64,000 bases of DNA from the NCBI GenBank assembly GCA_014905635.1, contig JABVCE010000048.1, positions 1-64,000 of the forward strand, read 5' to 3'. The translations under genes and the position numbers were made by a program. This document shows, in pieces, positions 5,260 to 36,911 of the stretch (the first letter of the stretch is position 1; each line of letters starts with the position of its first letter). The notes below the pieces were generated by a model that searched no databases, had not been told where the DNA came from, and saw nothing but the letters and a program-made list of their open reading frames with translations. The DNA comes from Scenedesmus sp. PABB004. Lineage: Eukaryota.

Positions 5260-8200
5260 CCGCGGCGCGGCGCGGCCGCCGGCGGCCGACCTCGGCGGCG
5301 CAGCCCGCGGCCGGGCAGCATGTTGGAGCCGCGCACCTCCGCTCCGCAGGGGCGGCGGGGCAGGGAAACGGCGCACGGCAGCGCCGCGCCGCGGCGCCGG
5401 CGAGCGGCGCGCGCGCGGCGCGGCGCGCGGCCCGCGGCGCGGCGCGGCCGCCCGCGGCCGACCTCGGCGGCGCAGCCCGCGGCCGGGCAGCATGTTGGAG
5501 CCGCGCACCTCCGCTCCGCAGGGGCGGCGGGGCAGGGGAAACGGCGCACGGCAGCGCCGCGCCGCGGCGCCGGCGAGCGGCGCGCGCGCGGCGGCGCGCG
5601 GCCCGCGGCGCGGCGCGGCCGCCGGCGGCCGACCTCGGCGGCGCAGCCCGCGGCCGGGCAGCATGTCGGAGCCGCGCACCTCCGCTCCGCAGGGGCGGCG
5701 GGGCAGGGGAAACGGCGCACGGCAGCGCCGCGCCGCGGCGCCGGCGAGCGGCGCGCGCGGGCGGCGCGCGGCCCGCGGCGCGGCGCGGCCGCGGCGGCCG
5801 ACCTCGGCGGCGCAGCCCGCGGCCGGGCAGCATGTTGGAGCCGCGCACCTCCGCTCCGCAGGGGCGGCGGGCAGGGGAAACGGCGCACGGCAGCGCCGCG
5901 CCGCGGCGCGCGAGCGGCGCGCGCCGCGCGGCGGCGGCGCGCGGCCCGCGGCGCGGCGCGGCCGCCGGCGGCCGACCTCGGCGGCGCAGCCCGCGGCCGG
6001 GCAGCATGTTGGAGCCGCGCACCTCCGCTCCGCAGGGGCGGCGGGGCAGGGAAACGGCGCACGGCAGCGCCGCGCCGCGGCGCCGGCGACCGGCGCGCGC
6101 GGGCGGCGCGCGGCCCGCGGCGCGGCGCGGCCGCCCGCGGCCGACCTCGGCGGCGCAGCCCGCGGCCGGGCAGCATGTTGGAGCCGCGCACCTCCGCTCC
6201 GCAGGGGCGGCGGGGCAGGGGAAACGGCGCACGGCAGCGCCGCGCCGCGGCGCCGGCGAGCGGCGCGCGCGCGGGCGGCGCGCGGCCCGCGGCGCGGCGC
6301 GGCCGCCGGCGGCCGACCTCGGCGGCGCAGCCCGCGGCCGGGCAGCATGTTGGAGCCGCGCACCTCCGCTCCGCAGGGGCGGCGGGGCAGGGGAAACGGC
6401 GCACGGCAGCGCCGCGCCGCGGCGCCGGCGAGCGGCGCGCGCGCGCGCGGCGCGCGCGCCCGCGCGCGGCGCGGCGCGGCGCGGCGGCCGACCTCGGCGG
6501 CGCAGCCCGCGGCCGGGCAGCATGTTGGAGCCGCGCACCTCCGCTCCGCAGGGGCGGCGGGGCAGGGGAAACGGCGCACGGCAGCGCCGCGCCGCGGCGC
6601 CGGCGACCGGCGCGCGCGCGGGCGGCGCGCGGCCCGCGGCGCGGCGCGGCCGCCCGCGGCCGACCTCGGCGGCGCAGCCCGCGGCCGGGCAGCATGTTGG
6701 AGCCGCGCACCTCCGCTCCGCAGGGGCGGCGGGGCAGGGGAAACGGCGCACGGCAGCGCCGCGCCGCGGCGCCGGCGAGCGGCGCGCGCGCGGGCGGCGC
6801 GCGGCCCGCGGCGCGGCGCGGCCGCCGGCGGCCGACCTCGGCGGCGCAGCCCGCGGCCGGGCAGCATGTCGGAGCCGCGCACCTCCGCTCCGCAGGGGCG
6901 GCGGGGCAGGGGAAACGGCGCACGGCAGCGCCGCGCCGCGGCGCCGGCGAGCGGCGCGCGGCCCGCGGCGCGGCGCGGCCGCCCGCGGCCGACCTCGGCG
7001 GCGCAGCCCGCGGCCGGGCAGCATGTTGGAGCCGCGCACCTCCGCTCCGCAGGGGCGGCGGGGCAGGGGAAACGGCGCACGTCAGCGGCGCGCCGCGGCG
7101 CCGGCGAGCGGCGCGCGCGCGGGCGGCGCGCGGCCCGCGGCGCGGCGCGGCCGCCGGCAGCCGACCTCGGCGGCGCAGCCCGCGGCCGGGCAGCATGTTG
7201 GAGCCGCGCACCTCCGCTCCGCAGGGGCGGCGGGGCAGGGGAAACGGCGCACGGCAGCGCCGCGCCGCGGCGCCGGCGACCGGCGCGCGCGCGGGCGGCG
7301 CGCGGCCCGCGGCGCGGCGCGGCCGCCGCGGCCGACCTCGGCGGCGCAGCCCGCGGCCGGGCAGCATGTTGGAGCTGCGCACCTCCGCTCCGCAGGGGCG
7401 GCGGGGCAGGGGAAACGGCGCACGGCAGCGCCGCGCCGCGGCGCCGGCGAGCGGCGCGCGCGCGGGCGGCGCGCGGCCCGCGGCGCGGCGCGGCCGCCCG
7501 CGGCCGACCTCGGCGGCGCAGCCCGCGGCCGGGCAGCATGTTGGAGCCGCGCACCTCCGCTCCGCAGGGGCGGCGGGGCAGGGGAAACGGCGCACGGCAG
7601 CGCCGCGCCGCGGCGCCGGCGAGCGGCGCGCGCGCGGGCGGCGCGCGGCCCGCGGCGCGGCGCGGCCGCCGGCAGCCGACCTCGGCGGCGCAGCCCGCGG
7701 CCGGGCAGCATGTTGGAGCCGCGCACCTCCGCTCCGCAGGGGCGGCGGGGCAGGGGAAACGGCGCACGGCAGCGCCGCGCCGCGGCGCCGGCGACGGCGC
7801 GCGCGCGCGGCGCGCGCGGCCCGCGGCGCGGCGCGGCCGCCCGCGGCCGACCTCGGCGGCGCAGCCCGCGGCCGGGCAGCATGTTGGAGCCGCGCACCTC
7901 CGCTCCGCAGGGGCGGCGGGGCAGGGGAAACGGCGCACGGCAGCGCCGCGCCGCGGCGCCGGCGAGCGGCGCGCGCGCGGGCGGCGCGCGGCCCGCGGCG
8001 CGGCGCGGCCGCCGGCGGCCGACCTCGGCGGCGCAGCCCGCGGCCGGGCAGCATGTCGGAGCCGCGCACCTCCGCTCCGCAGGGGCGGCGGGGCAGGGGA
8101 AACGGCGCACGGCAGCGCCGCGCCGCGGCGCCGGCGAGCGGCGCGCGCGCGGGCGGCGCGCGGCCCGCGGCGCGGCGCGGCCGCCGGCGGCCGACCTCGG

Positions 8201-11200
8201 CGGCGCAGCCCGCGGCCGGGCAGCATGTTGGAGCCGCGCACCTCCGCTCCGCAGGGGCGGCGGGGCAGGGGAAACGGCGCACGGCAGCGCCGCGCCGCGG
8301 CGCCGGCGAGCGGCGCGCGCGCGGGCGGCGCGCGGCCCGCGGCGCGGCGCGGCCGCCGGCGGCCGACCTCGGCGGCGCAGCCCGCGGCCGGGCAGCATGT
8401 TGGAGCCGCGCACCTCCGCTCCGCAGGGGCGGCGGGGCAGGGGAAACGGCGCACGGCAGCGCCGCGCCGCGGCGCCGGCGAGCGGCGCGCGCGCGGGCGG
8501 CGCGCGGCCCGCGGCGCGGCGCGGCCGCCGGCGGCCGACCTCGGCGGCGCAGCCCGCGGCCGGGCAGCATGTTGGAGCCGCGCACCTCCGCTCCGCAGGG
8601 GCGGCGGGGCAGGGGAAACGGCGCACGGCAGCGCCGCGCCGCGGCGCCGGCGACCGGCGCGCGCGCGGGCGGCGCGCGGCCCGCGGCGCGGCGCGGCCGC
8701 CCGCGGCCGACCTCGGCGGCGCAGCCCGCGGCCGGGCAGCATGTTGGAGCCGCGCACCTCCGCTCCGCAGGGGCGGCGGGGCAGGGGAAACGGCGCACGG
8801 CAGCGCCGCGCCGCGGCGCCGGCGAGCGGCGCGCGCGCGGGGCGGCGCGCGGCCCGCGGCGCGGCGCGGCCGCCGGCGGCCGACCTCGGCGGCGCAGCCC
8901 GCGGCCGGGCAGCATGTTGGAGCCGCGCACCTCCGCTCCGCAGGGGCGGCGGGGCAGGGGAAACGGCGCACGGCAGCGCCGCGCCGCGGCGCCGGCGAGC
9001 GGCGCGCGCGCGGCGGCGCGCGGCCCGCGGCGCGGCGCGGCCGCCGGCGGCCGACCTCGGCGGCGCAGCCCGCGGCCGGGCAGCATGTTGGAGCCGCGCA
9101 CCTCCGCTCCGCAGGGGCGGCGGGGCAGGGGAAACGGCGCACGGCAGCGCCGCGCCGCGGCGCCGGCGACCGGCGCGCGCGCGGGCGGCGCGCGGCCCGC
9201 GGCGCGGCGCGGCCGCCGCGGCCGACCTCGGCGGCGCAGCCCGCGGCCGGGCAGCATGTTGGAGCCGCGCACCTCCGCTCCGCAGGGGCGGCGGGGCAGG
9301 GGAAACGGCGCACGGCAGCGCCGCGCCGCGGCGCCGGCGAGCGGCGCGCGCGCGGGCGGCGCGCGGCCCGCGGCGCGGCGCGGCCGCCGGCGGCCGACCT
9401 CGGCGGCGCAGCCCGCGGCCGGGCAGCATGTCGGAGCCGCGCACCTCCGCTCCGCAGGGGCGGCGGGGCAGGGGAAACGGCGCACGGCAGCGCCGCGCCG
9501 CGGCGCCGGCGAGCGGCGCGCGGCCCGCGGCGCGGCGCGGCCGCCCGCGGCCGACCTCGGCGGCGCAGCCCGCGGCCGGGCAGCATGTTGGAGCCGCGCA
9601 CCTCCGCTCCGCAGGGGCGGCGGGGCAGGGGAAACGGCGCACGTCAGCGGCGCGCCGCGGCGCCGGCGAGCGGCGCGCGCGCGGGCGGCGCGCGGCCCGC
9701 GGCGCGGCGCGGCCGCCGGCAGCCGACCTCGGCGGCGCAGCCCGCGGCCGGGCAGCATGTTGGAGCCGCGCACCTCCGCTCCGCAGGGGCGGCGGGGCAG
9801 GGGAAACGGCGCACGGCAGCGCCGCGCCGCGGCGCCGGCGACCGGCGCGCGCGCGGGCGCGCGCGGCCCGCGGCGCGGCGCGGCCGCCCGCGGCCGACCT
9901 CGGCGGCGCAGCCCGCGGCCGGGCAGCATGTTGGAGCCGCGCACCTCCGCTCCGCAGGGGCGGCGGGGCAGGGGAAACGGCGCACGGCAGCGCCGCGCCG
10001 CGGCGCCGGCGAGCGGCGCGCGCGCGGGCGGCGCGCGGCCCGCGGCGCGGCGCGGCCGCCGGCCGACCTCGGCGGCGCAGCCCGCGGCCGGGCAGCATGT
10101 TGGAGCCGCGCACCTCCGCTCCGCAGGGGCGGCGGGGCAGGGGAAACGGCGCACGGCAGCGCCGCGCCGCGGCGCCGGCGAGCGGCGCGCGCGCGGGCGG
10201 CGCGCGGCCCGCGGCGCGGCGCGGCCGCCGGCAGCCGACCTCGGCGGCGCAGCCCGCGGCCGGGCAGCATGTTGGAGCCGCGCACCTCCGCTCCGCAGGG
10301 GCGGCGGGGCAGGGGAAACGGCGCACGGCAGCGCCGCGCCGCGGCGCCGGCGACCGGCGCGGCGCGCGGGCGGCGCGCGGCCCGCGGCGCGGCGCGCCCG
10401 CCCGCCCGACCTCGGCGGCGCAGCCCGCGGCCGGGCAGCATGTTGGAGCCGCGCACCTCCGCTCCGCAGGGGCGGCGGGGCAGGGGAAACGGCGCACGGC
10501 AGCGCCGCGCCGCGGCGCCGGCGAGCGGCGCGCGCGCGCGGGCGCGCGCGGCCCGCGGCGCGGCGCGGCCGCCGGCGGCCGACCTCGGCGGCGCAGCCCG
10601 CGGCCGGGCAGCATGTCGGAGCCGCGCACCTCCGCTCCGCAGGGGCGGCGGGGCAGGGGAAACGGCGCACGGCAGCGCCGCGCCGCGGCGCCGGCGAGCG
10701 GCGCGCGCGCGCGGCGCGCGGCCCGCGGCGCGGCGCGGCCGCCGGCGGCCGACCTCGGCGGCGCAGCCCGCGCCGGGCAGCATGTTGGAGCCGCGCACCT
10801 CCGCTCCGCAGGGGCGGCGGGGCAGGGGAAACGGCGCACGGCAGCGCCGCGCCGCGGCGCCGGCGAGCGGCGCGCGCGGCGGGCGGCGCGCGGCCCGCGG
10901 CGCGGCGCGGCCGCCGGCGGCCGACCTCGGCGGCGCAGCCGCGGCCGGGCAGCATGTTGGAGCCGCGCACCTCCGCTCCGCAGGGGCGGCGGGGCAGGGG
11001 AAACGGCGCACGGCAGCGCCGCGCCGCGGCGCCGGCGACCGGCGCGCGCGCGGCGGCGCGCGGCCCGCGGCGCGGCGCGGCCGCCCGCGGCCGACCTCGG
11101 CGGCGCAGCCCGCGGCCGGGCAGCATGTTGGAGCCGCGCACCTCCGCTCCGCAGGGGCGGCGGGGCAGGGGAAACGGCGCACGGCAGCGCCGCGCCGCGG

Positions 11201-14200
11201 CGCCGGCGAGCGGCGCGCGCGGCGGGCGGCGCGCGGCCCGCGGCGCGGCGCGGCCGCCGGCGGCCGACCTCGGCGGCGCAGCCCGCGGCCGGGCAGCATG
11301 TTGGAGCCGCGCACCTCCGCTCCGCAGGGGCGGCGGGGCAGGGGAAACGGCGCACGGCAGCGCCGCGCCGCGGCGCCGGCGAGCGGCGCGCGCGCGGGCG
11401 GCGCGCGGCCCGCGGCGCGGCGCGGCCGCCGGCGGCCGACCTCGGCGGCGCAGCCCGCGGCCGGGCAGCATGTTGGAGCCGCGCACCTCCGCTCCGCAGG
11501 GGCGGCGGGGCAGGGGAAACGGCGCACGGCAGCGCCGCGCCGCGGCGCCGGCGACCGGCGCGCGCGCGGCGGCGCGCGGCCCGCGGCGCGGCGCGGCCGC
11601 CCGCGCCGACCTCGGCGGCGCAGCCCGCGGCCGGGCAGCATGTTGGAGCCGCGCACCTCCGCTCCGCAGGGGCGGCGGGCAGGGGAAACGGCGCACGGCA
11701 GCGCCGCGCCGCGGCGCCGGCGAGCGGCGCGCGCGCGGGCGGCGCGCGGCCCGCGGCGCGGCGCGGCCGCCGGGCCGACCTCGGCGGCGCAGCCCGCGGC
11801 CGGGCAGCATGTTGGAGCCGCGCACCTCCGCTCCGCAGGGGCGGCGGGGCAGGGGAAACGGCGCACACGGCAGCGCCGCGCCGCGGCGCCGGCGAGCGGG
11901 CGCGCGGCGCGGCGCGGCGCCCCGCCGGCCGGCCGACCTCGGCGGCGCAGCCCGCGGCCGGGCAGCATGTTGGAGCCGCGCACCTCGCTCTCCGCAGGGC
12001 GGCGGGGCAGGGGAAACGGCGCACGGCAGCGCGCGCCGCGGCGCCGGCGAGCGGCGCGCGCGCGGCGCGGCGCGCGGCCCGCGGCGCGGCGCGGCCGCCG
12101 GCGGCCGACCTCGGCGGCGCAGCCCGCGGCCGGGCAGCATGTTGGAGCCGCGCACCTCCGCTCCGCAGGGGCGGCGGGGCAGGGGAAACGGCGCACGGCA
12201 GCGCCGCGCCGCGGCGCCGGCGACGGCCGCGCGCGGCGGCGCGCGGCCCGCGGCGCGGCGCGGCCGCCGCGGCCGACCTCGGCGGCGCAGCCCGCGGCCG
12301 GGCAGCATGTTGGAGCCGCGCACCTCCGCTCCGCAGGGGCGGCGGGGCAGGGAAACGGCGCACGGCAGCGCCGCGCCGCGGCGCCGGCGAGCGGCGCGCG
12401 GCGGCGGCGCGCGGCCCGCGGCGCGGCGCGGCCGCCCGCGGCCGACCTCGGCGGCGCAGCCCGCGGCCGGGCAGCATGTTGGAGCCGCGCACCTCCGCTC
12501 CGCAGGGGCGGCGGGGCAGGGGAAACGGCGCACGGCAGCGCCGCGCCCGCGGCGCCGGCGAGCGGCGCGCCGCGCGGGCGGCGCCCCGCGGCGCGGCGCG
12601 GCCGCCGGCGGCCGACCTCGGCGGCGCAGCCCGCGGCCGGGCAGCATGTTGGAGCCGCGCACCTCCGCTCCGCAGGGGCGGCGGGGCAGGGGAAACGGCG
12701 CACGGCAGCGCCGCGCCGCGGGCGGGCGACCGGCGCGCGCGCGGCGGCGGCGCGGCCCGCGGCGCGGCGCGGCGCCCGCGGCCCGACCTCGGCGGCGCAG
12801 CCCGCGGCCGGGCAGCATGTTGGAGCCGCGCACCTCCGCTCCGCAGGGGCGGCGGGGCAGGGGAAACGGCGCACGGCAGCGCCGCGCCGCGGCGCCGGCG
12901 AGCGGCGCGCGCGCGGGCGGCGCGCGGCCCGCGGCGCGGCGCGGCCGCCGGCGGCCGACCTCGGCGGCGCAGCCCGCGGCCGGGCAGCATGTTGGAGCCG
13001 CGCACCTCCGCTCCGCAGGGGCGGCGGGGCAGGGGAAACGGCGCACGGCAGCGCCGCGCCGCGGCGCCGGCGAGCGGCGCGCGCGCGGGCGGCGCGCGGC
13101 CCGCGGCGCGGCGCGGCCGCCGGCGGCCGACCTCGGCGGCGCAGCCCGCGCCGGGCAGCATGTTGGAGCCGCGCACCTCCGCTCCGCAGGGGCGGCGGGG
13201 CAGGGGAAACGGCGCACGGCAGCGCCGCGCCGCGGCGCCGGCGAGCGGCGCGCGCGCGGGCGGCGCGCGGCCCGCGGCGCGGCGCGGCCGCCGGCGGCCG
13301 ACCTCGGCGGCGCAGCCCGCGGCCGGGCAGCATGTTGGAGCCGCGCACCTCCGCTCCGCAGGGGCGGCGGGGCAGGGGAAACGGCGCACGGCAGCGCCGC
13401 GCCGCGGCGCCGGCGAGCGCGCGCGCGCGGGCGGCGCGCGGCCCGCGGCGCGGCGCGGCCCGCCGGCGGCCGACCTCGGCGGCGCAGCCCGCGGCCGGGC
13501 AGCCTGTTGGAGCCGCGCACCTCCGCTCCGCAGGGGCGGCGGGGCAGGGGAACGGCGCACGGCAGCGCCGCGCCGCGGCGCCGGCGAGCGGCGCGCGCGC
13601 GGGCGGCGCGCGGCCCGCGGCGCGGCGCGGCCGCCGGCGGCCGACCTCGGCGGCGCAGCCCGCGGCCGGGCAGCATGTTGGAGCCGCGCACCTCCGCTCC
13701 GCAGGGGCGGCGGGGCAGGGGAAACGGCGCACGGCAGCGCCGCGCCGCGGCGCCGGCGAGCGGCGCGCGCGCGGCCGGCGCGCGGCCCGCGGCGCGGCGC
13801 GGCCGCCGGCGGCCGACCTCGGCGGCGCAGCCCGCGGCCGGGCAGCATGTTGGAGCCGCGCACCTCCGCTCCGCAGGGGCGGCGGGGCAGGGGAAACGGC
13901 GCACGGCAGCGCCGCGCCGCGGCGCCGGCGAGCGGCGCGGCGCGCGCGGCGGCGCGCGGCCCGCGGCGCGGCGCGGCCGCCCGCGGCCGACCTCGGCGGC
14001 GCAGCCCGCGGCCGGCAGCATGTTGGAGCCGTGCACCTCCGCTCCGCAGGGGCGGCGGGGCAGGGGAAACGGCGCACGGCAGCGCCGCGCCGCGGCGCCG
14101 GCGAGCGGCGCGCGCGCGGCGGCGCGCGGCCCGCGGCGCGGCGCGGCCGCCGGCGGCCGACCTCGGCGGCGCAGCCCGCGGCCGGGCAGCATGTTGGAGC
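5260..14200. repeat. 172-bp extremely GC-rich satellite array, ~52 monomers
   Basis: CATGTTGGAGCCGCGCACCTCC recurs at 172-bp spacing (6174/6346, 6521/6693/6865, 7022/7194); monomers are highly similar. Confidence 0.98.
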
Positions 14201-14210: not shown

Positions 14211-14511
14211 TCGCGCGGCGCGGGGGCTGATGCCGCTGAGGCCGGCCCCTGCCGCCGCCAGCGTGGATGGCGTTTGCGCGTGATCTCTGCGCGGAGGCTT
14301 GGGGCCGGTGCACCTCGCTGCACCGATGCCCGGTGCGGCTCGCCGCACCGGAAGGGGGGTGTGCGGCCTGATCTGCTGCTGCCCCTTTGATTGCGGGGCA
14401 TCACCTGGTCTCCTTGGGCGCCCGTTGGGCGTTGGCCTCTGGCTGTGCCGTTGGGTGATGTGTGTGCCCCCTCTCGGGGGGCGCCGGGGGCGCGGTTTTT
14501 CACGAGGGGTT
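14211..14511 (+). mobile_element. Fragment of the L1-type 3' UTR, lacking its own 3' end
   Basis: Near-identical to ~26602-26901; preceded by ~10 bp of pyrimidine filler (14201-14210). Confidence 0.9.
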
Positions 14512-14701
14512 TTTTTTTTTTTTTTGTTACAACGGGTGACCAGACAAGGACCGAGGCCCAGGGGCAGCCCATTGAAAAAAGCTCCAACGGGAAGAGCGCA
14601 GCAACCCCTCGTGAAAAACCGCGCCCCGGCGCCCCCCGAGAGGGGGCACACACATCACCCAACGGCACAGCCAGAGGCCAACGCCCAACGGGCGCCCAAG
14701 G
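14510..14701 (-). mobile_element. 3' terminus (poly(A)) of an inverted, 5'-truncated L1 copy, left part
   Basis: T16 + GTTACAACGGG... is the reverse complement of ~26803-27001; the copy continues at 27002-27075. Confidence 0.92.
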
Positions 14702-14708
14702 GGGGGGG

Positions 14709-17700
14709 CTCAAGGTGGTGGCCGTCAACGTGAACGGCCTCAACCGCAAGCCCAGCCGACAGGCGTTCTTCGCCTGGCTCCTGGCCTCCCGCTACCACGT
14801 GGTCGTCCTCACAGAGACGCACGCGCAGGGCGACGGCCAGGCCCGCAGGTGGGTCCAGGGCGGGGCCGGCCCCGGCCGGCCATGGCAGGGTTCAGCATGG
14901 TGGAGCCACGGCAGCTCAGCGTCGCGGGGCGTGGGCATCCTGATCCGCGATGGCGTCGTGCCCGCTGGGGAGGCGCCGAGTATCGAGTACTGCGACACTG
15001 TAGGTAGGCTGCTGCGCGTGGGCTGGCGCACGCAGCATGGCGACCGCCTCTCGGTGCTGGGCGTTTACGCGCCGTCCGAGCGGGCAGAGCGCCCTGCGTT
15101 CTTCGCGGGGCCGTACCAGGAGGCCCTCCTGGCAGGGCCGGCGGGCGCGCTGCTGCTGGCGGGCGGCGACTTCAACTGCGTCGTCTCGCCGGCTGACGTC
15201 CAGCCCCTGCCGGGGCAGGCGGCGGCGCGGTCTGGCCGGTGCCACGGCGGCGCGGACCTCGCCCGCGCCAACGCGGCGGCGGGCGTCGTCGACGCGCTGC
15301 TGCGCGTGGCGCCGCAGCTCCGCGCGCAGCCCACGCACTACCAGCGGCGCGACGGGGCGGTGCACGGTGGCCGCATCGACGCGTGGTTCGTGGCGCAGGA
15401 GCTCGCCGACCACTGGCTGGTCGGTGCGGCGCACCACCCGCTGTGCCACAGCGACCACAGGCCGGTCAGCGTCAGCCTGCAGCGACCGGGACAGCCGCTG
15501 GCTGGGCGGCGACGCTGGACGTTCCCCAACGACCTGCTCGCCTGCGCCAGCCGCCGGGCCGAGCTCCGCGACCGTGTAGCAGCTGCCGCGCAGCAGCTGC
15601 GGGACGCAGGGCTGGACCCGGGCGAGCTGTTTGAGCAGCTCAAACAGAGTGTGCGGCGCATCGCGGCGGAGCTGCGTGCGGAGATGCGGCAGCAGGAGCA
15701 GCAGGAGCTCCGCCAGCTGCGGCACGCGCTGCGCGCAGCGCGCTGGGCGGCAGGCAGCCAGCAGTACGGCTGCCCCGAGGCCGCCGCTAACGCCCTCGCC
15801 GCAGAGCGGACGCTCGCCGCGGCGGAGGCGGCGCAGCGGCGGCAGCAGGCGGACGCTCTGGAGGCGGTATGGGACGAGTGCGGCGAGGGGCCCAGCCGCT
15901 GGTTCCACCGCCTGGGCCGCGCGCCGGGCGGCGCGCAGCCAATTCACGCGCTCGCCCGCCCGGGCCAGCCCGCCGTGCCGCTTACCTCCAGGGCAGGCAT
16001 CCAGGAGGGCGGCCGCATCATCGCCGACTTCTTCGACGCGGACGTGCCGGGCGGCATGTTCGGCGTCCGGCCGACCGACCAGCAGCAGCAGGACTGCATG
16101 CTGGACGCGCTGGACCGGCAGCTCTCGGCAGCCGAGCAGCGGGCCTGCCGCGGGCAGGACCCCGAGGGGCTGCTCACGTTCGCCGAGGCGACGGCGGCGC
16201 TGGCCAGCCTGCCGCGCGGCGCGGCGCCGGGCAGCGACGGCCTCACCTGCGAGGCCTACGCGGCCCTGTGGGAGGTGCTGGGCGAGCCGCTCGTCCAAGC
16301 CTTCAACTATCACTACCTCAACCAGGCAGCCGGCGCGCCGCAGCTCGCGGCGACGCAGCGGCTCGGGCTCATCACGCTGATCCACAAGGGCGGCCAGCCG
16401 CGCGAGGCGGTCAGCAGCTACCGCCCCATCACGCTGCTCAACACAGACACCAAGATCGCAGCCAAGGCCATCGTGCAGCGGCTCGCGCCCGCGCTCGGCT
16501 CCATCGTCGACGGCACGCAGACGGCGTTTGTGCCGGGCCGGGACATCGCCGACAACGTGCTCATGCACCTGGAGGCGATCGACCACGCGCGCGAGACGCG
16601 CGCGCCGGGCTGCCTGCTGTTCCTCGACTTTGCCAAGGCCTACGACCGCCTCGACCGCGGCTGGCTGTTCAGGTGCCTCGCGCGCATGGGCCTGCCCGAC
16701 GCAACCACGCGCTGGGTCCGCCTGCTGCTCGCAGGCACGCGGGCGCGCGTCGCCTTCAACGGCGGCCATGTCAGCCGCGAGTTCAGCGTGGCGTCGGGCT
16801 GCGCGCAGGGCAGCCCGCTCAGCCCGCTGCTGTATGTGCTGGCGGCGCAGCCGCTGGCGGCCATGTGCCGGCGCGTGCAGCGGCAGCCCGGTTTTGCCAG
16901 CCTGCAGCTGCCCGGCGGCGCAGGGCCGGCGCCCTGCTGCCACCAACACGCAGACGACACCACCCTGCACGCAGCGTCAGTGGAGAGCGCCAAGCGGCTG
17001 CTGGACGGCGCCGTCGCGCCGTTCTGCCTGGCCAGCGGCGCGCAGCTCAACCTGGCCAAGTGCAAGGGCATGCTGCTGGGCGACCACCCGGCGCTGCAGC
17101 TGCAGCCGGATGGCAGCGGGCAGCTGGTCGAGTGCAACACGGGCGTGTGCTTCCCGGACACAGAGCAGGCGCCGATCAGGCACCTGGGCGTGCTGCTCTC
17201 TGCCACCGGCGTCGAGCGGCACGCGGCGCAGCTTTACCGCGAGCGGCTGCGCACCATCACCTGCCGCATCGCGCACTGGTCGCGGTACGCGCTCACGCGC
17301 CCGGGCCGCCGGCACGTTGCGCGCCAGGTGCTCGCGGCCTGCGTGGGCTGGCACGCGCAGTTTGTGCCGGTGCCGGCCGACCTCCTGCGCCTCATCCAGC
17401 GGCGCGTCACCGCCTACATCGTCGGCAACTGGTGCATCCGCGAGAGCGACAACCGCATTATCAGGCAGGTTCCGCGGGCGGCCATCGCGTGCCTGCCCGC
17501 GAGCATGGGCGGCGAGGCGCAGGTCGACGTCGCGGCCTTCACCACGGCAATGCTGGCCAAGACGGCCGCCAGGCTGCTGCACCCGGTGGGGGCGGCCTGG
17601 AAGCCACCCGCGGCGGCGCGCTTCGCGCGCGCGCTGCCTGGCCGGGGCACCGCCGCCCTCGTGCAGGGCACCGCGCTGGAGCTGCGGGCGCAACTGCCGT

Positions 17701-19567
17701 GGCGGTGGGGCGCGATCGCCTGCGCGTTTGCGGCTCTCGGCGTGCACCGGGTGATCCCCCACGGCAGCATGACCGTGGAGCAGATCAGGGTGGAGGCCCT
17801 GGTGGGCAACTGCAGCGTCGGCGCGGCCCTGGGCGGCGCGCGCATCGCGTCGCTCGAGGACCTGCCCGCGGAGCTGCGCAGCGACAGCCTCGGGCAGGCG
17901 GCGCCGCGCCTGCCGTGGCGGCCGGCCGCCGATGGCGTCGTCATGCCGGGTGAGTGGCAGCAGGCGCTCGCGCGCAGCGGGCCGAGCGCGCCGGGTTGGC
18001 AGGCGCTGCGGCCCAGCGCGGCGCCGCCGTCGCCGGGCGGCGGCGTGGTGCAGCAGCCCCAGCAGCCGCTGGCGGCGCTGCCGGTGGAGCAGCCGCCGCA
18101 GCCGCCGCCGCCGCCGCCCGCCGTGCGGTGGGTACGGCGGTGGGCGCTGGGCGCGGCAGCGGCGAGCTTCTTCGAGGTGGGGCCTGACAGCAGGCTCCGC
18201 ACCGCCGAGCCCCCGCCCGAGATAGTCGCGGCGGGGGGGTGGGAGGACTGCTGCGTGGTGGACGCGGCGCAGGCGCCGCGGCCAGCGGCGGGCGCGCAGC
18301 GCGCGGCGGCCGGAGCGCCCGGGGCAGCGGCGCCGGCGGAGCAGCCGGAGATGCACAGCAGGGCGCGGCGATGGTTCCTCGTGGGCTTTTGGCCTGACGT
18401 CCGCGTCGACCCCTCCGTGTGGGGGCTCGGGCACGCGGCCACGGTCATGCAGTTTACGGTGCGCGGCGCGACCCTGCGGCTGCTGCAGCTGCGCTGCGCG
18501 CGCGAGGTCACGCCGGCAGGGGGCTGGACGCCCGGCGTTGGCTGCGTGCCGGGCCTCTGGCGCGCCGGCTACGGCCAGGCATGCCCGGCCAGCGCCATCG
18601 CGCGGCGGGAGGCGGGCCAGAAGCGCAGCTGGGCGGAGCGGCAGCGAGCCGCGACGCCAGACCCGGAGCCTGGGCTGCCGGCGTGGCAGAAAGTCTCGCC
18701 CCCGCGGCGCCACGTCATGGAGCGCGTCGGGCCGGCGGCGGCCGCTGCCGCCGCGGCGCGGCGCGAGGAGCAGGAGCGGCGGCGGGAGCAGCAGTTGGAG
18801 CAGCGCAGGACCCTGGTTCGGGAGCCGGCGGCCAACGACCTCGTCGACCCGCTCACTGGTGCGACTGCGCCGCCGCGCGCCGGCGAGCGCGCGGAGCCGC
18901 CCGCCTGGGCCGCCTGCTACGCGCGCGCGCAGCAGGCGCGCATGCCGCGCGCCCTGCGACACTTTGGCTGGAGCCTGCTGCACGGCGGGGTGCGCGTCAG
19001 CGGCGACAGGGTCTTCTCTTACCAGCGCGCGGCGCCGGAGCTGGCGGAGCTGGCGTGCCCGCACCCGCTCTGCCGCGCGCAGCAGCAGCCGCCGCTGGAG
19101 ACGCTCGGCCACGTCCTCGGCGGATGCCCCGTGGCGGCGGCGGTGCTGCAGTGGTTTGCTCACCTCTGGGCGCGGCTGCAGCCGGGCTTCCCGAGCGCGC
19201 CGCCCCCGCCCAGGGTGATGCTGGCGGACGACTTTGCCAGGTCGGGCGTCGCGCCGGAGCTGCAGCAGCTCTGGACGCACCTCCGCCTGCTGCTACTGCG
19301 CGCCCTGCTCGCCGCGCGCGCGCGGCACGGCGGCGGCCGGCCCGGGCACGCGCCTGTGGCGGCGATTCGCATCTTTGTGTACTCGGTGCGCGACGCAATC
19401 GTGCTGGACTGGCGCAAGGCAGCGATGGACGTGCGCGCGCTGGCGGGCGTGCCGCGCTCCTGGCTGCCGGGCTCCGGCAAGGAGCTCACTCGGGCAGATT
19501 TCGAACGCCGGTGGTGCCACCGAGGGGTCATCGCGCGCACGGGCCAGCACGGGGGCCGCTTCACAAT
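14709..19567 (+). CDS. L1-type ORF2: APE endonuclease, reverse transcriptase, CCHC finger; C-terminus continues at 26170-26293
   Basis: LKVVAVNVNGL, LTETH, VYAP, GGDFNC, RIDAWF, SDHRPV; PGSDGL, YRPITLLNTD, QTAFVPGR, LDFAKAYD, GCAQGSPLSPLLY, HADDT; CPHPLC..ETLGHVLGGC. Open for ~4.9 kb with no initiating ATG. Confidence 0.93.
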
Positions 19568-22500
19568 AGATATATAGAGCGCTGCAATAGCCTGGGCATC
19601 TCGCTCAACGCGTCTATCAACATCGCTGCGTCCAACAACTTGGGGTGGCTCCCGGGAGGCCATTGCGTGCCGAAAAGCCAGGACCAGCGCCACACCAGAC
19701 CCTATTTCGGCCCGCACGCGCAGCGCCGGAGCGCCGGCCCGCGTGCCGCAGCGCCGGAGCGCCGGAGCCGCGCGAGCCCGCGCGGAGCCAGTCGGCCGTG
19801 GCGGGCTGCCCGCCAACGGCTAGTTCCGTTCGGCCGCACCGCGCGTCCGTTCGGCCGCGCGCGCGCCCGTGCGGGCGCGCGCGCCTGCTCAGAGCGCGTT
19901 TTCGTGAGGCTGGAGACGTGAGGGCAGCCGTGGCGGGCCCGCCGCGCAAGCGGCGGGCCTGCAGCGTGCGGCAGCAGCAGCGCAGCGACCACGGCAGCGA
20001 CAGCGGCGACGGCAAGGCGACTGACGGCGTGCCCAGCGCGATGCGGACCCCTTGACCTTCAAGGGGGCTGCACTGCGCCGGAGGCGCACGCTGTCGGTCA
20101 CGCTGGAGCAACGGCAGCAGCGGCGGCAGCGGCAGCGGGCGGGTGCCCCGAGAGCGACAGCGCTGGCGCAGGAGACGTCTGGCCCGCCAGCGGCAGCGTG
20201 CACACCCCTAAGACGCGCCACGCCGCCGGACCCAGCCGGACTCCCCTGCACAGCGCAGCCGCTAGGCGGGGCGCTCGCCTGCCAGCCGCGGCCGCCGCTG
20301 CAGCTCGCCCAGCACCTGCCAACGCCCACGCTCACCGCGCGCACGCGGCTGCCCCACCCTCCAGCTACTGACACACCATGCAGGACCACAGGGACGCAGG
20401 AACGGAGGCGGCTGCAGCCGGCGTCAGGGCCACAGCGGCCACGCCGGGCTCGCCTGCCGTGCGCCCCTGTGGTCCTGGCGTCGGCGGGCCGCTCTACGTG
20501 TGCGTGGGCGGCGCGTGGCGGACCATCACCAGCGACAAGCTCGGGGTTGGGCCGTCCGCCGCCGGGCCCGCACCGGGGCCGGACTACGCCTGGGTGGAGG
20601 GGGCCTGGCGCCGCGCGGCGGCCCTGCCGACCCCGGCGGGGCCGCCGGAGCGGCGTGCTGGGGGCGCGCGCCTGCCCGGCAGCACTGGCCGCGCGCGCGC
20701 TGCACCCACCGCCGCACCGGCCCACGCGCCGCCTGCCACCGCCGCCCGCCGCCGCACGACAGGTCATGCCCAAGGCCGCCCCGCGGCGGTCGCGCAGCGT
20801 GCGGCCCCGCCTTGTGCGCTGGGGCTCTCTGCCCTGGTGTTTGGCGTCGGCCCCGAGGATGCCATCGACGGCGGCAACCCCGCGCGCAGCAAGATCTCCG
20901 AGGCCGTCCGGCGGGCTATTGCAGCGGGGGCTGATGCCGACACGCTCACGTTGGCGGCGGCCGCGCTGGCCGCGGGGCGCATGCAGTGGATGGGCAGCAC
21001 GCGTGCGGCGCAGCGCCGCCGCGTCATGCGTGTGCGCCTGCAGCGCATCCCCAGCGCCCACCGCGCTGCGCTGCTCCAGCACCGCGCGGCGCTGGCGGCG
21101 GCGCTGCGCGCGCAGCTCGGCTGGCGCCTCGTGGTCTGCGAGGACGGCCGCGCCCTGCCTGCTCAGCCGCCCCTGCCCACAGACGCCAACCCCTACGCAG
21201 CGCTCGCCGATGCTGCCGCCGCCGAGGCGGCGCCGGACAGCGGCGCCGAGTGCCGCGCGGCTCCCCCGCGCCTGCACGGCAGCATTGTGTGCAAGCACTT
21301 TGCTGGCCACGGCGACTTCTACGGCGTGGTGCTCAAGATCCGCGGCGCCCGCGGCCCCTACGCCTACCGTGTGCACTACACCGACGGCGAGGACGAGACG
21401 ATGACGGAGGAGGAGGCGCGGGGCCACCTTGCCGGCAGCGTACCAGCAGCGCACGCGGTGCACGCGCTGCGCGCGCGCCTGCTGCCGCCGACGCCCGCAG
21501 ATGGCGTGGTCGTCAAGAGGTACTTCCGGTCGCACCGGCAGCACTTTTACGGCGTGCTCACCATCCGGCCGCCCTTCTTTGCCGTAGCCTACACCGACGG
21601 CGACGCGGAGGACATGGACGCCGACGAGGCTGCGCGGCACGCGGTCGCCGACGCGCCCGAGCTCGCGCCGCACTGGGCCGGGCTCGCCGCGCGCGGCGCG
21701 CGCGCTGACCTCTACCCCCTTGCCGCCGCCGCGGCCGCTCAGCTCGCGCTTGGCGCCGACGCGCCCGAGGCGGCGCCGGCCGCTGCGGCCGCCGCCCCGG
21801 CTGCCGGGGCGGCGGCCGCCGACGTGTCGCTCGCGCCGGAGCGCGTCCCGGCGGCCGACAACGCAGCGCGGGCGCGCCGCGCGTGTCCCGCCTACACCGA
21901 CCGCCGCATGCGCCGCCGCCACACAGGCCTCGTACGCGCCGCCAACCTGGCGTGGGCCCGCGCGGGGCTCCGCGTGGCGTGCATCAACGTCTGCGGCATG
22001 ACCAGGCTGAAGGCTGCCGAGCTCGCCGCTGCTACGACGGCGCTCTGCATCGACATCCTCGCCGTCGTCGAGACCTGGGAGGGCCACCCCTGCGTCGCCC
22101 ACGAGCTGCCTGGCTACACCTTCATCGGCAAGCCGCGCAGCCGGGGGCAGGGCGGGGGCGTGGGCTTTTACGTCGCGCGCGCGCTGGCCCCGCTCGTGCG
22201 CGCGCCCGCCGACACGCAGCTGCCCGAGGCGCTCTGGCTGGAGCTGCGCCGCGGCGGCAGCGCCGCGACCGCGCGGCCGGCGTCTGTCGGCGTCGTCTAC
22301 CTGCCGCCGGCGTCGCTGGAGAGCGCCGCGCTGCGGGCCGACACCTACGCGCAGCTGCAGACGGACATCCAGAGGTTCCAGGAGCGGGGCGCGGTGCTGG
22401 TGCTGGGCGACTTCAACAGCCGCGTGGGCAGCAGCGCGCCAGCGGAGCAGCAGGCGGACCAGCCGCCGGCGCGCATCGGGCAGTGGGGGAGAGCGGCGCG

Positions 22501-25500
22501 CCCGACGCGGCGGGCCAGGCCCTGCTGGCCATGCTCGACGCCACTGACCTGTACGCCCTCAACGGGCGCGCGCCCACCGCCACCGGCCTGCCTGCCTACA
22601 CCCGCGCCCGCCTCGTGTGCGGCGCTGACGGCACGCACACCGAGCAGTGCTCGGTGCTCGACTACGTCCTCGCGCCCGCGGCGTGGGCGCTCCCCTCCAG
22701 CCGCGGCCCGGCGCCCTGCGCCCTGACCGTGGCCGACGATCGGCGCATCACCAAGTCTGACCACCTGCTGCTGTGGACCTGCCTGCCTCACCCCGCCGCC
22801 CGCGCGCGCGCCCCCGCGGGCCTGCGCCGCCGCGTCGCGCGCACCGACCTGCTCAAGCCGGTCCCGGGGCAGCGCGATGCGGGGCATGCCGATGCCTACC
22901 GCGCGGAGCTCGCCGACGCGCTGGCCGACTATGCCGACGACGTGGCTGCCCTCGCCGACCAGGTGGGCAGCGCGCTGCTGCCGGCGCGCGAGGCGTGCGC
23001 GCGCGCCAAGGCTGCGCTGTGCGATGCCATTTGGACGGCGGTCGATGGCAGCGTCGGCTACAGGGAGGTGCGCTCGGGCGGTGGCGGCGGCAGCGCCGCC
23101 GCCGCGCGGCGCATCTTCACGCCGGCGGTCCAGGCCGCCGTGCAGGCGCGCCGCGACGCTGATGTCGCGCTGGCGGCCGCCCGGGGGCGGCCGCCGGCGG
23201 CGACGCTGACGCCGCCCCTGCCCAGGCTGCTGCCGAGCTTGCCGCCGCGCGGGACCAGCTGTGCGCCGCACAGCGGGCTGTCAAGTCCGCCGTGGCGGCT
23301 GCGCGCGCAGCGGAGCTCGGCCGCCGCGTTGACGCGGTTCACGCCCGTCACGCGGCAGGCGACGGCAAGGGCATGTGGGAGCAGCTGCGCCAGATTGCCG
23401 GCACTGCCAGGCGGGGCCCTGGCGGCCCCGCAGCGCTGCGCGCTGCTGCCAGCACTGGCATGGTTGTGGGCGAGCAGCAGATCGCAAACGCCCTGGCAGC
23501 GCAGTACGCCAGTGTCAGCGACCCCGCGGCGTTTGCTGCCGGGGCAGACTTTGACGAGCAGTGGCGCGAGCAGGTCGAGGCGGACGTGGCGCGCTACCGC
23601 GCCGCCGCCTCTGACCCCAGCGGCAGCGACAGCGAGCAGGACCCCCTCAGCGCCGACATCACCGCCGCCGAGGTCGCAGCCCAGGCGCAGGCCCTCTCCA
23701 ACAACAAGGCCCCCAGCCCGCTCGACGGCGTCACCAACGAGCTGCTCAAGTACGGCGGCGAGCCCCTTTGGGGCGCGCTGGCCGCCTTCTTCAACCTGCA
23801 GTTCACCCTGGAGACCAAGGCCCAGACCGCCGGCGTCATCACCCCGATCTACAAGCGCGGCGACCCGACCGACCCCGCCAACTACCGCCCCATCACGCTC
23901 GGCTCCGCGGTGGACAAGCTCTACAACCTCGTGCTCAACAAGCGCCTCACTGACCACCTTGAAGGCCACGGCCTGCTGCACGACGCGCAGCAGGGCTTCC
24001 GGCCCGGGCGCAGCGCCGCCGACAACATCTTCATGCTCACCTCCTGCCTCGACGCCCGCGCCGCGCAGGGACTCGACACCTACGTACTGTTCCTTGACGT
24101 CGCCAAGGCCTACGACACCGTGTGGCGCTCCGGCCTGCTTCACAACCTCTGGCGCGTGGGCGTGCGCGGCCGCCTGTTCCGCGTGCTCGCCAACATGACC
24201 GACCGCACGCGCAGCATGGTGCGGCACCGCGGCGCGCTGTCAACAGCCTTTGAGCCGGGCCTTGGGTGGGAGCAGGGCGACACGCTGGCGACTACGATGT
24301 TCAACGTCTTCATCAACGCCGTGCTCCAGGAGGTGTGGGCCGCCTGCCCGGGCGTGCCGCTGCCCGCCGCGCCCGCGCCCGCGCCCGCCGCGCCGCCCGC
24401 GCCGCCCGCCGGCGCGGCGCCACCCGCGCCCGAGCCAGGCGCCGCCGACGACAAGCTGGTCGCGCTCCTCTTTGCGGACGACTGCGCGAGCCTTGCGGCC
24501 GGCCCGGCGGAGATGCAGCAGCTCCTTGGCGCCACGCGCGCCGCGCTCGCCCGCTGGCGGCTCAAGGCCAGTGTCAGCTCGGCGGACGCGTCCAAGACAG
24601 CGGTGATGGTGGTGCCGGGGGGCCGCACCCGGCATGCCGTCGCTGCGGCGGCTGCTGCCGCGGCGGCCTACCAGTGGTCGTGGGGCGCGGAGCAGGTGCC
24701 GCGCGTCACTGGGTACAGGTACCTGGGCGCGTGGCTGACGGCCGACCGCAGCGCCCGCAGCTGGGACGCCCACCTGCAGCGCCGCAAGGCTGCTGCGGAC
24801 AAGGCGTTCTGGGCTCAGTCGGCGGTGCTGCGTGAGCGGCGCCTGCCGCTGCGCCTGCGCCTGCTCACGCTCACGGGCGTGGTGCAGCCTGTGTTGACGC
24901 ACGCGGCCCAGGTCTGGGCCCGCCCCACGGTCGAGCGCCGCGCGGAGCTCGACTCGTGGCAGGCGGGGCTGGTGGCGCGCATGACCGGGTGCCCGCCCAA
25001 CGTGTCGCACGCGTGCCTGCAGCAGGAGCTGGGCATCACCCCGCTGCATGTCGTCTGCGACACCCTCATGCTGCGCTACTGGCACCGCCTGCGCGCCCTG
25101 CCAGCCGACCGCCTGTTGCGCCGTGTTGCCGACGCCTGGCCCGCCACGCCGTGGTGGAAGGGCGTGGGCGGCCTCCTGCGGGACTACGGCGTCGATGTTG
25201 TGGCTACTGCTGGCATGAGCCGCAACGAGTTTGCTGCTCACCTTTGCGACCTTGCTGGCGACCACATCGATGGCGCCTGGGAGGCCGCCGCCGGCCGCGG
25301 CTCGGTGGCGCGGCGCTACCGGGAGGCCTTTGGCAGCGGCGTCTTCTCTACTCGCTCCTTCACGCGCCGCGCCGGCGTGCCGTGCGCCCGGGATTACCTG
25401 GGCTGGCTCTGCAGCCCCGGCGGCCCGCGGCGCGGCCGGCCGGCGGCGCTGCTCATGCGCCTGCGCATGGAGTGCCTCCCGCTGCGCGCTGCCCACAGCC

Positions 25501-26161
25501 ACGCGCGCCGGGGGAGTCGATCGCGCAGCAGGCGGAGCGAGAGCGCTGCCCCTGCTGCGCTGCGCGCGCGCCCGAATCGGCCGCGCACTTTCTCTTTGAG
25601 TGCGGCGCGCCCGGCCGCCCTGCGCGCCTCGTTGCGCTGCTTGCGGACCTCCGTGCCAGCGGCGGGGGCGCGCATGCTGGCGCGCTGGCTGCGCACCTGC
25701 GTGCGGCTGGTGTTGAGATGGCGGCTAGCGGCAGCCAGGAGCTGGAGGCTGGAGCTGGCGGCGGCGGCAGCGGCAGCGGCAGCGACCCCGGCGTCGTGGC
25801 TAGCGCGGCGGCCCCTCGGGCTGCTGACGCAGGCGCGGCGGTCAGCATCAGCGATAGCGGCGTCACGGCTGATACGGCGGCCCCTCGGGCTGATGATGTC
25901 AGCGCGGCGGTCAGCGTCAGCAGCGTCTCTGCTGGTGCGGCGGCCCCTCGGGCTGCCGTTACCGGCGCGGCGAGTCGGTGTGCAGCACTGGAGCAGGCTC
26001 GGCGTTATCTGCTTGGTGACCTGCTGCAGGATCAGCTTGCTGTTCACTCTGTGGCAGATTATGTGATGGACATCTGGAAGATGCGGGACACCGTCCTTAA
26101 GGGGCGCGGGACCAATGGGCGCGAGCCTGTGGTGTAACTATCTTTATCTTTATCTTTATCT
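19568..26161 (+). mobile_element. RTE/RTEX-like LINE nested in the L1 ORF2
   Basis: TSD TTCACAAT at 19560-19567 and 26162-26169; tail of TATCTT repeats (26139-26161) right after the ORF stop. Clade inferred from the tail type and architecture. Confidence 0.88.
20378..26137 (+). pseudogene. LINE polyprotein: N-terminal region, 2x Tudor-like, APE, RT, CCHC finger; frameshifted
   Basis: CINVCGM, VVETW, GGGVG, VYLPP, LGDFNSRVG, VLDYVL, SDH; YRPITL, QQGFRPGR, FLDVAKAYDTVW, QGDTLA, LFADDC, YRYLG; CPCC..ESAAHFLFEC. Frame changes near 22490, 23180-23300 and 25510-25620. Confidence 0.88.
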
Positions 26162-26169
26162 TTCACAAT

Positions 26170-26248
26170 GGAGTTCCGGCTCACCGCAGCGGGCGTGCCG
26201 GCGCTGCCGGCGGCGCCGGCGCTGGCCCCGCCGGCGGTGCAGGACCCC

Positions 26249-26279
<31 letters not shown>

Positions 26280-26293
26280 AGCGCGGCGGCTAG
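26170..26293 (+). CDS. Displaced C-terminus of the L1 ORF2
   Basis: Removing the nested LINE and one TSD copy restores the frame ...GGRFTMEFRLTAAGVPALP...AQRGG*. Confidence 0.8.
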
Positions 26294-27001
26294 CTGCAGG
26301 GGCCGGGGGGGTCCGCGGCCGGGCTTGCTGCGACCCCGGCTGGCTGCGTGTCGCGCCTCTTCTGCGGCGTGCAAGGTTGGGCGGTGTCCCCCCGTGCCGC
26401 GGGGCTGGTGTCTGCGTGTTTGTGTTTGTCGTCGCGCGGCGAGGGGGCTGCAGCCGGTGGGGCCGGCCCCTGGCGCCGCCGGCGTGTTTGGCGGCTTGGC
26501 GTGCTGCCTGCCCGGTGGGGCGGCTTTCTCATCGGTGTGCGGCTTTCTCAGGGGTTTTTGCAGCAAAGCCAACTGCTGCCCCCTGGTGTGTGCGTGTGTC
26601 GTCGTGCGGCGCGGGGGCTGATGCCGCTGAGGCCGGCCCCTGCCGCCGCCAGCGTGGGTGGCGTTTGCGCGTGATCTCTGCGCGGAGGCTTGGAGCCGGT
26701 GCACCTCGCTGCACCGATGCCCAGTGCGGCTCGCCGCACCGGAAGGGGGGTGTGCGGCCTGATCTGCTGCTGCCCCTTTGATTGCGGGGCATCACCTGGT
26801 CTCCTTGGGCGCCCGTTGGGCGTTGGCCTCTGGCTGTGCCGTTGGGTGATGTGTGTGCCCCCTCTCGGGGGGCGCCGGGGCGCGGTTTTTCACGAGGGGT
26901 TGCTGCGCTCTTCCCGTTGGAGTTTTTTTTTCAATGGGCTGCCCCTGGGCCTCGGTCCTTGTCTGGTCACCCGTTGTAACAAAAAAAAAAAAAAAAAAAA
27001 A

Positions 27002-27075
27002 GGGCGCCCAAGGAGACCAGGTGATGCCCCGCAATCAAAGGGGCAGCAGCAGATCAGGCCGCACACCCCCCTTCC
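27002..27075 (-). mobile_element. Right part of the inverted truncated L1 copy
   Basis: Reverse complement of ~26741-26814; resumes where 14510-14701 stops, sharing the 12-bp TSD. Confidence 0.9.
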
Positions 27076-27496
27076 AGCCGCGCACCTCCGCTCCGCAGGG
27101 GCGGCGGGGCAGGGGAAACGGCGCACGGCAGCGCCGCGCCGCGGCGCCGGCGACCGGCGCGCGCGCGGGCGGCGCGCGGCCCGCGGCGCGGCGCGGCCGC
27201 CGGCGGCCGACCTCGGCGGCGCAGCCCGCGGCCGGGCAGCCTGTTGGAGCCGCGCACCTCCGCTCCGCAGGGGCGGCGGGGCAGGGGAAACGGCGCACGG
27301 CAGCGCCGCGCCGCGGCGCCGGCGAGCGGCGCGCGCGCGGGCGGCGCGCGGCCCGCGGCGCGGCGCGGCCGCCCGCGGCCGACCTCGGCGGCGCAGCCCG
27401 CGGCCGGGCAGCATGTTGGAGCCGCGCACCTCCGCTCCGCAGGGGCGGCGGGGCAGGGGAAACGGCGCACGGCAGCGCCGCGCCGCGGCGCCGGCG
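27076..27496. repeat. Continuation of the 172-bp satellite (~2.4 monomers)
   Basis: Same monomer, resuming at AGC|CGCGCACC in register with the break at 14200; the rare CAGCCTGTTGG variant occurs at both ~13500 and ~27237. Confidence 0.97.

Positions 27497-33202: not shown

Positions 33203-36911
<3,709 letters not shown>

Follow-up and report, generated by a model that had tools for sequence, protein, structure and literature searches.

A LINE retrotransposon of Scenedesmus sp. PABB004 encoding a predicted tandem Tudor-like module ahead of its endonuclease

In a 64,000-nucleotide stretch of DNA from the green alga Scenedesmus sp. PABB004 (GenBank assembly GCA_014905635.1, contig JABVCE010000048.1, positions 1 to 64,000 of the forward strand; hereafter the window), a long interspersed nuclear element (LINE) was found to encode two Tudor-like repeats N-terminal to its apurinic/apyrimidinic endonuclease (APE) and within the same polypeptide. 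The best explanation of this Tudor pair, to which a probability of roughly 0.55 is given, is chromatin-guided integration: the pair would read a methylated histone residue and would tether the LINE protein/RNA complex to nucleosomes with a particular histone methyl mark, so that nicking by the neighbouring endonuclease and the onset of target-primed reverse transcription would fall in chromatin marked in this way. Such a role would parallel that of the chromodomains in chromoviruses and that of the DNA-binding domains found at the N-terminus of site-specific LINEs. Regarding the mark, the PDB titles of solved Tudor relatives name H4K20me1, H3K4me1, H3K9me2, H3K36me3 and others; since the relatives read differing marks, a ligand is not transferable from them. 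Tentatively, and as a proposal that we would sooner doubt than assert, a young, probably still active LINE lineage may aim its target-primed reverse transcription at a chromatin state, e.g. one rich in satellites or transposable elements (TEs) and possibly centromere-proximal, with Tudor capture as a recurrent TE strategy.

A preliminary description of the window had quoted two related motifs of ~45 amino acids as Tudor-like, of the PTM/DIR17 and lamin-B receptor types. Both motifs are present as quoted in frame 2 of the + strand and are spanned by positions 21284-21631, and the family assignment was borne out. Pfam PF21743 (PTM_DIR17_Tudor; gathering cut-off 27.2 bits) matched a 167-aa segment in two stretches with 36.3 bits (E 4.8e-9) and the 784-aa open reading frame (ORF) with 32 bits, which is above the cut-off. 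When the profile of a nine-row alignment was compared with the PDB sequences, the lamin-B receptor Tudor was the best solved relative (2dig, E 0.0012), followed by KDM4 and RDM15 Tudors. (When the window segment was used by itself as query, the PDB sequences yielded a chance-level galectin match only (E 1.1), and a word-index protein search with the Tudor region of the window ORF yielded nothing.) The top clusters in the protein Atlas corresponded to PF21743 (score 0.90, 180 shared features).

A phmmer search of 1.84 billion representative proteins with the 125-aa tandem as query yielded 34 matches at the threshold of E<=0.001. PF21743 (E<=0.001) was present on 21 of the 33 matches scanned (P0024 was left out, being too long to scan), and the matches lacking it mostly align to the Ala-rich linker alone (query ~46-89). 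Host chromatin proteins are among the matches, including a protein with three Tudors and a SET domain (P0009), a PHD-bromodomain-Tudor protein (P0029) and a Tudor-Myb protein (P0016). Within the nine aligned sequences, columns F10, F16, Y32 and Y36 of repeat 1 are aromatic in all nine, columns F85, F92, F103 and Y107 of repeat 2 are aromatic in eight or nine, and D38, G39, D109 and G110 are invariant. Four aromatic residues and an Asp form the ligand cage in royal-family/Tudor domains, and the conserved aromatic columns together with the Asp would form such a cage here, for methyl-lysine or methyl-arginine.

The AlphaFold2 prediction of the tandem (mean pLDDT, the predicted local distance difference test score, 83.6) shows two barrels, each of four strands and a short helix, which are connected through a linker that contains a helix. 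Repeat 1 comprises four strands and a helix, from E5-10 to H46-51 (segment numbering), and repeat 2 is predicted with a pLDDT of 90-95. The linker reaches 60-74, and an equivalent helix is predicted in P0027, a diverged LINE protein described below. Foldseek, for which the best three matches had E<=0.001, placed the BAHCC1 tandem Tudor (E 1.3e-4) and SETDB1 Tudors at the top, followed by 53BP1, AGDP1, SHH1 and Spindlin; the fold expected by the preliminary description was thus recovered, with histone-reading Tudors as the best structural matches. VIA-align gave a Z score of 6.3 for the BAHCC1 tandem Tudor against repeat 2 (root-mean-square deviation (rmsd) 2.0, 52 residues), 5.8 for the RDM15 Tudor and 5.7 for the SMN Tudor. 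The models thus support a reading of the repeats as two four-strand Tudor-like (SH3-like) barrels of the PTM/DIR17 type.

The element that carries the repeats is a young APE-type LINE, in which the AP endonuclease is followed by the reverse transcriptase (RT) in one ORF; both domains were recognized by Pfam (Exo_endo_phos and RVT_1), in agreement with the LINE polyprotein proposed earlier. It has no long terminal repeats (LTRs), and a simple-repeat 3' tail, a target-site duplication and several copies are present, as is characteristic of LINEs. The coordinates of the features are listed in Table 1. The motif TTCACAAT at 19560-19567 is repeated at 26162-26169, where it overlaps the last TT of the tail, which gives a target-site duplication of 6-8 bp. 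Contigs from public freshwater-metagenome runs of four studies (X1, X5, X6 and X8) were also compared, no RNA run being among those listed for the element. The contigs leave the Tudor-LINE at ~26160 for differing flanks, as in two contig records that match up to that point and then diverge. No second copy of the Tudor-LINE was found within the window. In one X5 contig a single T separates the tail (26157) from position 21281, which is exactly where Tudor 1 starts; the tail side comprises only ~30 letters. The junction may reflect insertion of a 5'-truncated copy at the tail of another copy.

The Tudor region lies in DNA with a G+C content of 73-80%. Frame 2 of the + strand is free of stops from 20372 to 22726 and holds both repeats and the N-terminal part of the APE without a splice. 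The Exo_endo_phos match in this frame covers positions 31-174 of the 225 of the profile, i.e., the N-terminal two thirds of the APE; the remaining C-terminal portion of the domain, which includes SDH, is read in frame 1. The claim that the repeats are in frame with the APE therefore holds up to 22484, and beyond it three -1 shifts are needed for the remainder of the APE, for the RT and for the C-terminus to be read. Read through from the Met at 21026 with X at the three breaks, the ORF has 1,704 codons and zero stops. An Ala-rich linker separates Tudor 2 from the APE. The N-terminal motif is identical to P0027 in 26 of 43 aligned residues (60%) and matched no Pfam family; the C-terminal knuckle, which aligns with CPSC...HFLLEC in P0027, likewise matched no Pfam model. 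Nor was any Pfam family found in the upstream 1.46 kb, the linkers or the C-terminal third.

All three breaks are located in runs of five G, of which the ORF has seven runs of G>=5. Contigs of three runs have one extra G after 22484, at full depth in X1 and X8 and in 2 of 4.4 in X6, and contigs of all four runs have one extra G after 25509, at full depth in X1 and X8, in 4.6 of 7.9 in X5 and in 2 of 4.5 in X6 (contig depth, which is higher towards the 3' end of the element, being no copy number). Contigs with the G5 form of the window are present in X5 and X6 as well. For the run at 23183-23187 no supporting contig was found among those listed; there, the protein P0001 reads ...ALAAARGAAAGGDADA, as expected from G6, and it likewise reads ...HARRGESIARQ at 25510-25514. 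Open-frame versions of the Tudor-LINE family therefore exist, with extra-G forms in contigs at two of the three breaks, and the breaks in the window arose either as homopolymer errors during assembly or by very recent mutation. A reading of the copy as a dead relic was considered and rejected, since each of the three breaks amounts to one missing G in a G5 run and forms with one more G exist. Should the breaks stem from homopolymer errors in the assembly, similar false frameshifts may be present in its other genes.

The same fusion occurs in other LINE copies, namely in P0001, in the metagenome contigs and in the diverged P0027. P0001 (1,763 aa) is 98% identical to the window over the Tudor tandem and is named 'LINE-1 reverse transcriptase-like [Scenedesmus sp. 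PABB004]' at NCBI, where PF00078, PF03372 and PF21743 are precomputed on it. Its gene model is chimeric: the first 56 residues are the C-terminus of the neighbouring LINE, and ~70 APE codons are skipped as an 'intron'. P0001 differs from the window at several residues and has the same upstream LINE neighbour; it represents the nested arrangement of the window in a further copy, allele or strain and no independent insertion. Among the metagenome contigs, the Tudor region shows no differences over 267 bp in X8 and two over 341 bp in X1.

P0027 is an uninterrupted protein of 1,708 aa on a 6,950-bp contig, with an overall identity to the window element of 42-45%. Its order is that of the window (N-terminal motif, Tudor 1, helix linker, Tudor 2, APE, RT and CCHC knuckle), and the start Met is aligned as well. 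The window tandem matched it in phmmer with an E-value of 2.9e-4, and its own tandem is predicted by AlphaFold2 with the same topology (pLDDT 75.8). A possible additional, third Tudor-like stretch at P0027 residues ~113-165 went unrecognized by the profile. A search with the whole length of P0027 returned P0001 and four distant LINE proteins, P0035-P0038, and no Tudor was found on these four or on the other LINE of the window; a word-index search with P0027 residues 195-600 against shorter proteins returned nothing, and two scans of JGI metagenome contigs (with the Tudor alignment and with P0027) confirmed no relative. Since P0027 shares the layout at ~45% identity, the Tudor fusion is, judging from these proteins, an inherited and retained feature of the lineage and no one-off capture. 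With the module present in P0027 and missing from P0035-P0038 and from the host LINE, it was gained in the common ancestor of the two lineages and kept.

Regarding the site of insertion, the Tudor-LINE appears to be nested within the 3' end of a LINE that lacks a Tudor. The frame of this host LINE is free of stops from 14391 to 19577 (1,728 codons) and resumes past the insertion at 26165-26293 (TMEFRLT...QRGG, then a stop), the continuation of 42 open codons being weak evidence on its own in DNA so rich in G+C. The RT of the host LINE is 29% identical to that of P0027, and no Tudor match was found on the element at E<=10. The LINE pair is part of an island of TEs and satellite of at least 27 kb beside ordinary genes, and this context would fit a preference for repeat chromatin, from one insertion only.

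Several observations weigh against chromatin-guided integration by a Tudor pair. Taken singly, the repeats stay under the PF21743 cut-off (repeat 1, 23.1 bits, E 6.4e-5; repeat 2, 22.0 bits, E 1.5e-4) and match each other weakly (25.8% identity, E 0.052), so the family assignment rests on the pair. Both AlphaFold2 runs, for the window and the P0027 tandems, used a hand-chosen nine-row alignment of Tudor proteins, and the models lean on those rows. The Foldseek template modeling (TM) score is ~0.3 for the pair, which is so low because the mutual orientation of the two barrels is free, and all VIA-align Z scores are below 8, a range where a common arrangement is possible, with KOW, PWWP and SH3-like barrels among the rows. 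Between the two LINE lineages, Tudor 1 (15/47 identical residues, 32%) and Tudor 2 (19/44, 43%) are less conserved than the APE (54%) and the RT core (69%) and no better than the Ala-rich linkers (39-44%), and PF21743 reaches 14.2 bits on P0027 (E 0.038) only. LINE lineages with a Tudor module number only two among the representative proteins searched. The Tudor region of the X5 contig has nine differences, including the exchange of an invariant Gly for Val and, across repeat 2, a pair of indels (-1 and +10), and on this pattern is a damaged copy. Finally, a single insertion was seen in context, with housekeeping genes ~6 kb downstream (phosphoglucomutase at ~33.4 kb), so the heterochromatic position assumed in the preliminary description is not established.

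Three other roles of the Tudor segment were weighed. The pair could bind methylated host proteins, e.g. those with symmetric dimethylarginine in ribonucleoprotein (RNP) or small-RNA pathways, and thereby act in RNP assembly, in nuclear import or in the evasion of silencing rather than in the choice of target. SMN, a methyl-arginine reader, provides one of the best single-domain matches (Z 5.7), and a four-aromatic cage is common to readers of methyl-Lys and methyl-Arg; yet the closest multidomain sequence relatives are chromatin proteins (SET, PHD-bromodomain, Myb), the best tandem matches are histone readers, and the extended-Tudor (SN-like) elements are absent from the AlphaFold2 model, and we regard this role as unlikely. 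The barrels might instead bind nucleic acid, either the LINE RNA or the target DNA, and so replace the missing ORF1 chaperone or help to hold the primer-template. No ORF1 or other domain was recognized over the 1.46 kb that precede the start, either by Pfam or in the protein Atlas, which gave no usable match for 20378-21283, and nucleic-acid-binding SH3-like barrels occur among the structural rows (Spt5 KOW, PWWP with ssDNA, PHF1 with DNA). The family match is, however, to PF21743 with its DGD/aromatic signature and to neither KOW nor PWWP, and the repeats are acidic (DGEDE, DGDAED, EEEA), which is unfavourable for binding nucleic acid; the chance of such a function is put slightly lower still.

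That the Tudor segment is a functionless passenger, either a fragment captured from the host or an artefact that gene modelling and assembly produced in a decaying copy, is considered very improbable. The three frameshifts of the window copy, the chimeric NCBI-named model of P0001, the damage to repeat 2 in one contig and the position of the Tudors as the least conserved recognizable domains speak for it. Against it stands the presence of both repeats, in the same order and with their hallmark residues, in the uninterrupted 1,708-aa ORF of a ~45%-identical lineage, together with the nature of the frameshifts (single-G deficits with one-more-G forms in existence) and the single unspliced frame that joins the Tudor segment to the endonuclease. 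Chromatin-guided integration remains the preferred explanation of the Tudor pair.

Table 1. Features of the Tudor-bearing LINE and of its surroundings in the window.
Feature	Position	Strand	Remarks
Whole Tudor-bearing LINE copy	19568..26163	+	5' region, single long ORF, (ATCTTT)4 tail
Probable start codon and conserved ~45-aa N-terminal motif (MRVRLQRIP...LGWRLVVCEDGRALP)	21026..21160	+	Met aligns with P0027 start
Tudor-like repeat 1 (GSIVCKHF...TMTEEEA)	21278..21418	+	PF21743, AlphaFold2
Inter-Tudor linker, predicted helix	21419..21499	+	AlphaFold2 helix at 60-70 (segment numbering)
Tudor-like repeat 2 (DGVVVKRYF...DMDADEA)	21500..21631	+	PF21743, AlphaFold2
AP endonuclease domain (endonuclease/exonuclease/phosphatase, EEP-type)	21968..22776	+	Pfam Exo_endo_phos E 1.1e-5; -1 frameshift inside, G5 run 22485-22489
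First -1 frameshift, frame 2 to 1	22485-22489	+	G5 run
Second -1 frameshift, frame 1 to 0	23183-23187	+	G5 run
Reverse transcriptase domain	23709..24575	+	Pfam RVT_1 E 3.2e-24
Third -1 frameshift, frame 0 to 2	25510-25514	+	G5 run
C-terminal Cys/His (CCHC) knuckle CPCC...H...C	25547..25603	+	CX2CX8-9HX4C, read from translation
Stop codon, then (ATCTTT)4 3' tail	26135..26163	+	stop 26135-26137, tail 26140-26163
Host LINE of the insertion, Tudor-less, APE and RT	14700..19567	+	Pfam Exo_endo_phos, RVT_1; insertion cuts ORF near 3' end
Copia-type LTR retrotransposon	~731-4882	+	gag, pre-integrase, integrase, RVT_2; split over several frames
172-bp satellite array (also scored as 343-bp dimer)	5260-14200		~52 copies, 94-96% match, ~88% G+C, 9 kb
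Palindromic unit, two copies	14211-14701, 26602-27075		~0.3-0.5 kb, poly(T)/poly(A) centre, 98% identical, flank LINE pair
2.4-copy remnant of 172-bp satellite	27076-27496		far side of LINE pair
Phosphoglucomutase	~33400-37100	+	multi-exon
NatA auxiliary subunit	40000-44200	+	multi-exon
LBP/BPI/CETP-like protein	48100-50000	-	multi-exon
Cyclopropane-fatty-acid-synthase-like (CMAS-type) methyltransferase	53500-56100	-	multi-exon
CitMHS-type transporter	60000-61100	-	multi-exon

Besides the flanking palindromic units listed in Table 1, the segment 14510-14701 matches 26996-26803 in reverse, as though a segment had been flipped or folded back.

The preliminary description spoke of an RTE/RTEX element. 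Classical RTE elements have a short ORF (~1,000 aa) that ends soon after the RT and lacks a C-terminal Cys/His knuckle. The ORF of the Tudor-LINE, with ~1,704 codons, continues for ~550 codons past the RT core and contains the CX2CX8-9HX4C knuckle, and the combination of long ORF and knuckle does not fit a classical RTE. In the PDB sequence search, R2 and L1 ORF2 proteins matched the RT only, both with an E-value of ~1e-10, which does not discriminate between clades.

To our knowledge, chromatin readers encoded by TEs are known almost only from LTR elements, in the form of chromodomains, and for most LINEs the choice of target beyond the short sequence preference of the endonuclease is an open question. 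If the proposed role is true, the element would be the first LINE guided by a chromatin reader, and its Tudor capture would parallel the chromodomain of chromoviruses. A LINE that joins reader and endonuclease would allow target-primed reverse transcription under chromatin guidance to be tested directly, and the Tudor module, being small (~125 aa) and separable, would be easy to test and potentially of use as a targeting part. If the mark is heterochromatic or centromeric, the module would also help to explain the presence of LINEs in green-algal centromeres and satellite regions. LINE/RTEX and L1 elements are reported from Chlorella centromeres in a previous study (PMC11005252), which makes LINE targeting in the repeat regions of green algae a live question.

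No description of a LINE with a Tudor was found by full-text searches of the literature, and no publication on P0001 came to light, so the expectation that the fusion was uncatalogued held for print; it did not hold for the databases, in which PF21743 was already precomputed on the NCBI protein P0001. The nearest published case is Gypsy-10_Ec32 of Ectocarpus, with a homolog in Tribonema minus, a retrotransposon with a Tudor domain that its authors claim to be the first TE reported with a Tudor, to their knowledge (Genome Biol 2025, PMC12477816). As described there, Gypsy-10_Ec32 is a stramenopile Gypsy LTR element with a single C-terminal Tudor, whereas the window element is a green-algal APE-type LINE with two N-terminal Tudors of the PTM/DIR17-like type. 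The differences in element class, host group and number and position of the Tudors indicate an independent acquisition, and with the Tudor-LINE the one Tudor-bearing element in print would be joined by a second and independent class of TE.

The cellular Tudors to which the repeats were matched (lamin-B receptor, 2dig; RDM15 with H3K4me1, 7de9; BAHCC1 with H4K20me1, 8ye8; SETDB1, 53BP1 and KDM4A) share with them family or clan, predicted fold, the aromatic/Asp-Gly-Asp signature and a frequent tandem arrangement, but belong to chromatin proteins of the cell, none of which is joined to an endonuclease and an RT. Three to four PTM/DIR17-like Tudor repeats were also observed at the C-terminus (~2037-2353) of P0017, a protein of 2,363 aa with Helitron_like_N and PIF1 helicase domains. 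By these domain matches, a further TE class, the Helitrons, has recruited the same Tudor family.

In chromoviruses, the chromodomain is thought to guide integration according to chromatin state, as stated in a recent preprint (bioRxiv 10.64898/2026.05.21.726589). The likeness to the window element, as far as that text describes chromoviruses, consists in a TE-encoded histone-reader module of the 'royal family' that is fused to the insertion protein. Chromoviruses are Ty3/Gypsy LTR elements with an integrase and a single C-terminal chromodomain, whereas the window element is a LINE that would insert by target-primed reverse transcription and has an N-terminal tandem Tudor. Targeting has been shown experimentally for some chromoviruses, whereas for the window element it is a proposal. 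Site-specific LINEs, e.g. R2 with its zinc-finger/Myb module, also have an N-terminal accessory module ahead of the catalytic domains, which positions the protein at its target. The R2 modules read a DNA sequence and work with a restriction-like endonuclease, whereas the module of the window element, by family a reader of protein marks, precedes an AP endonuclease.

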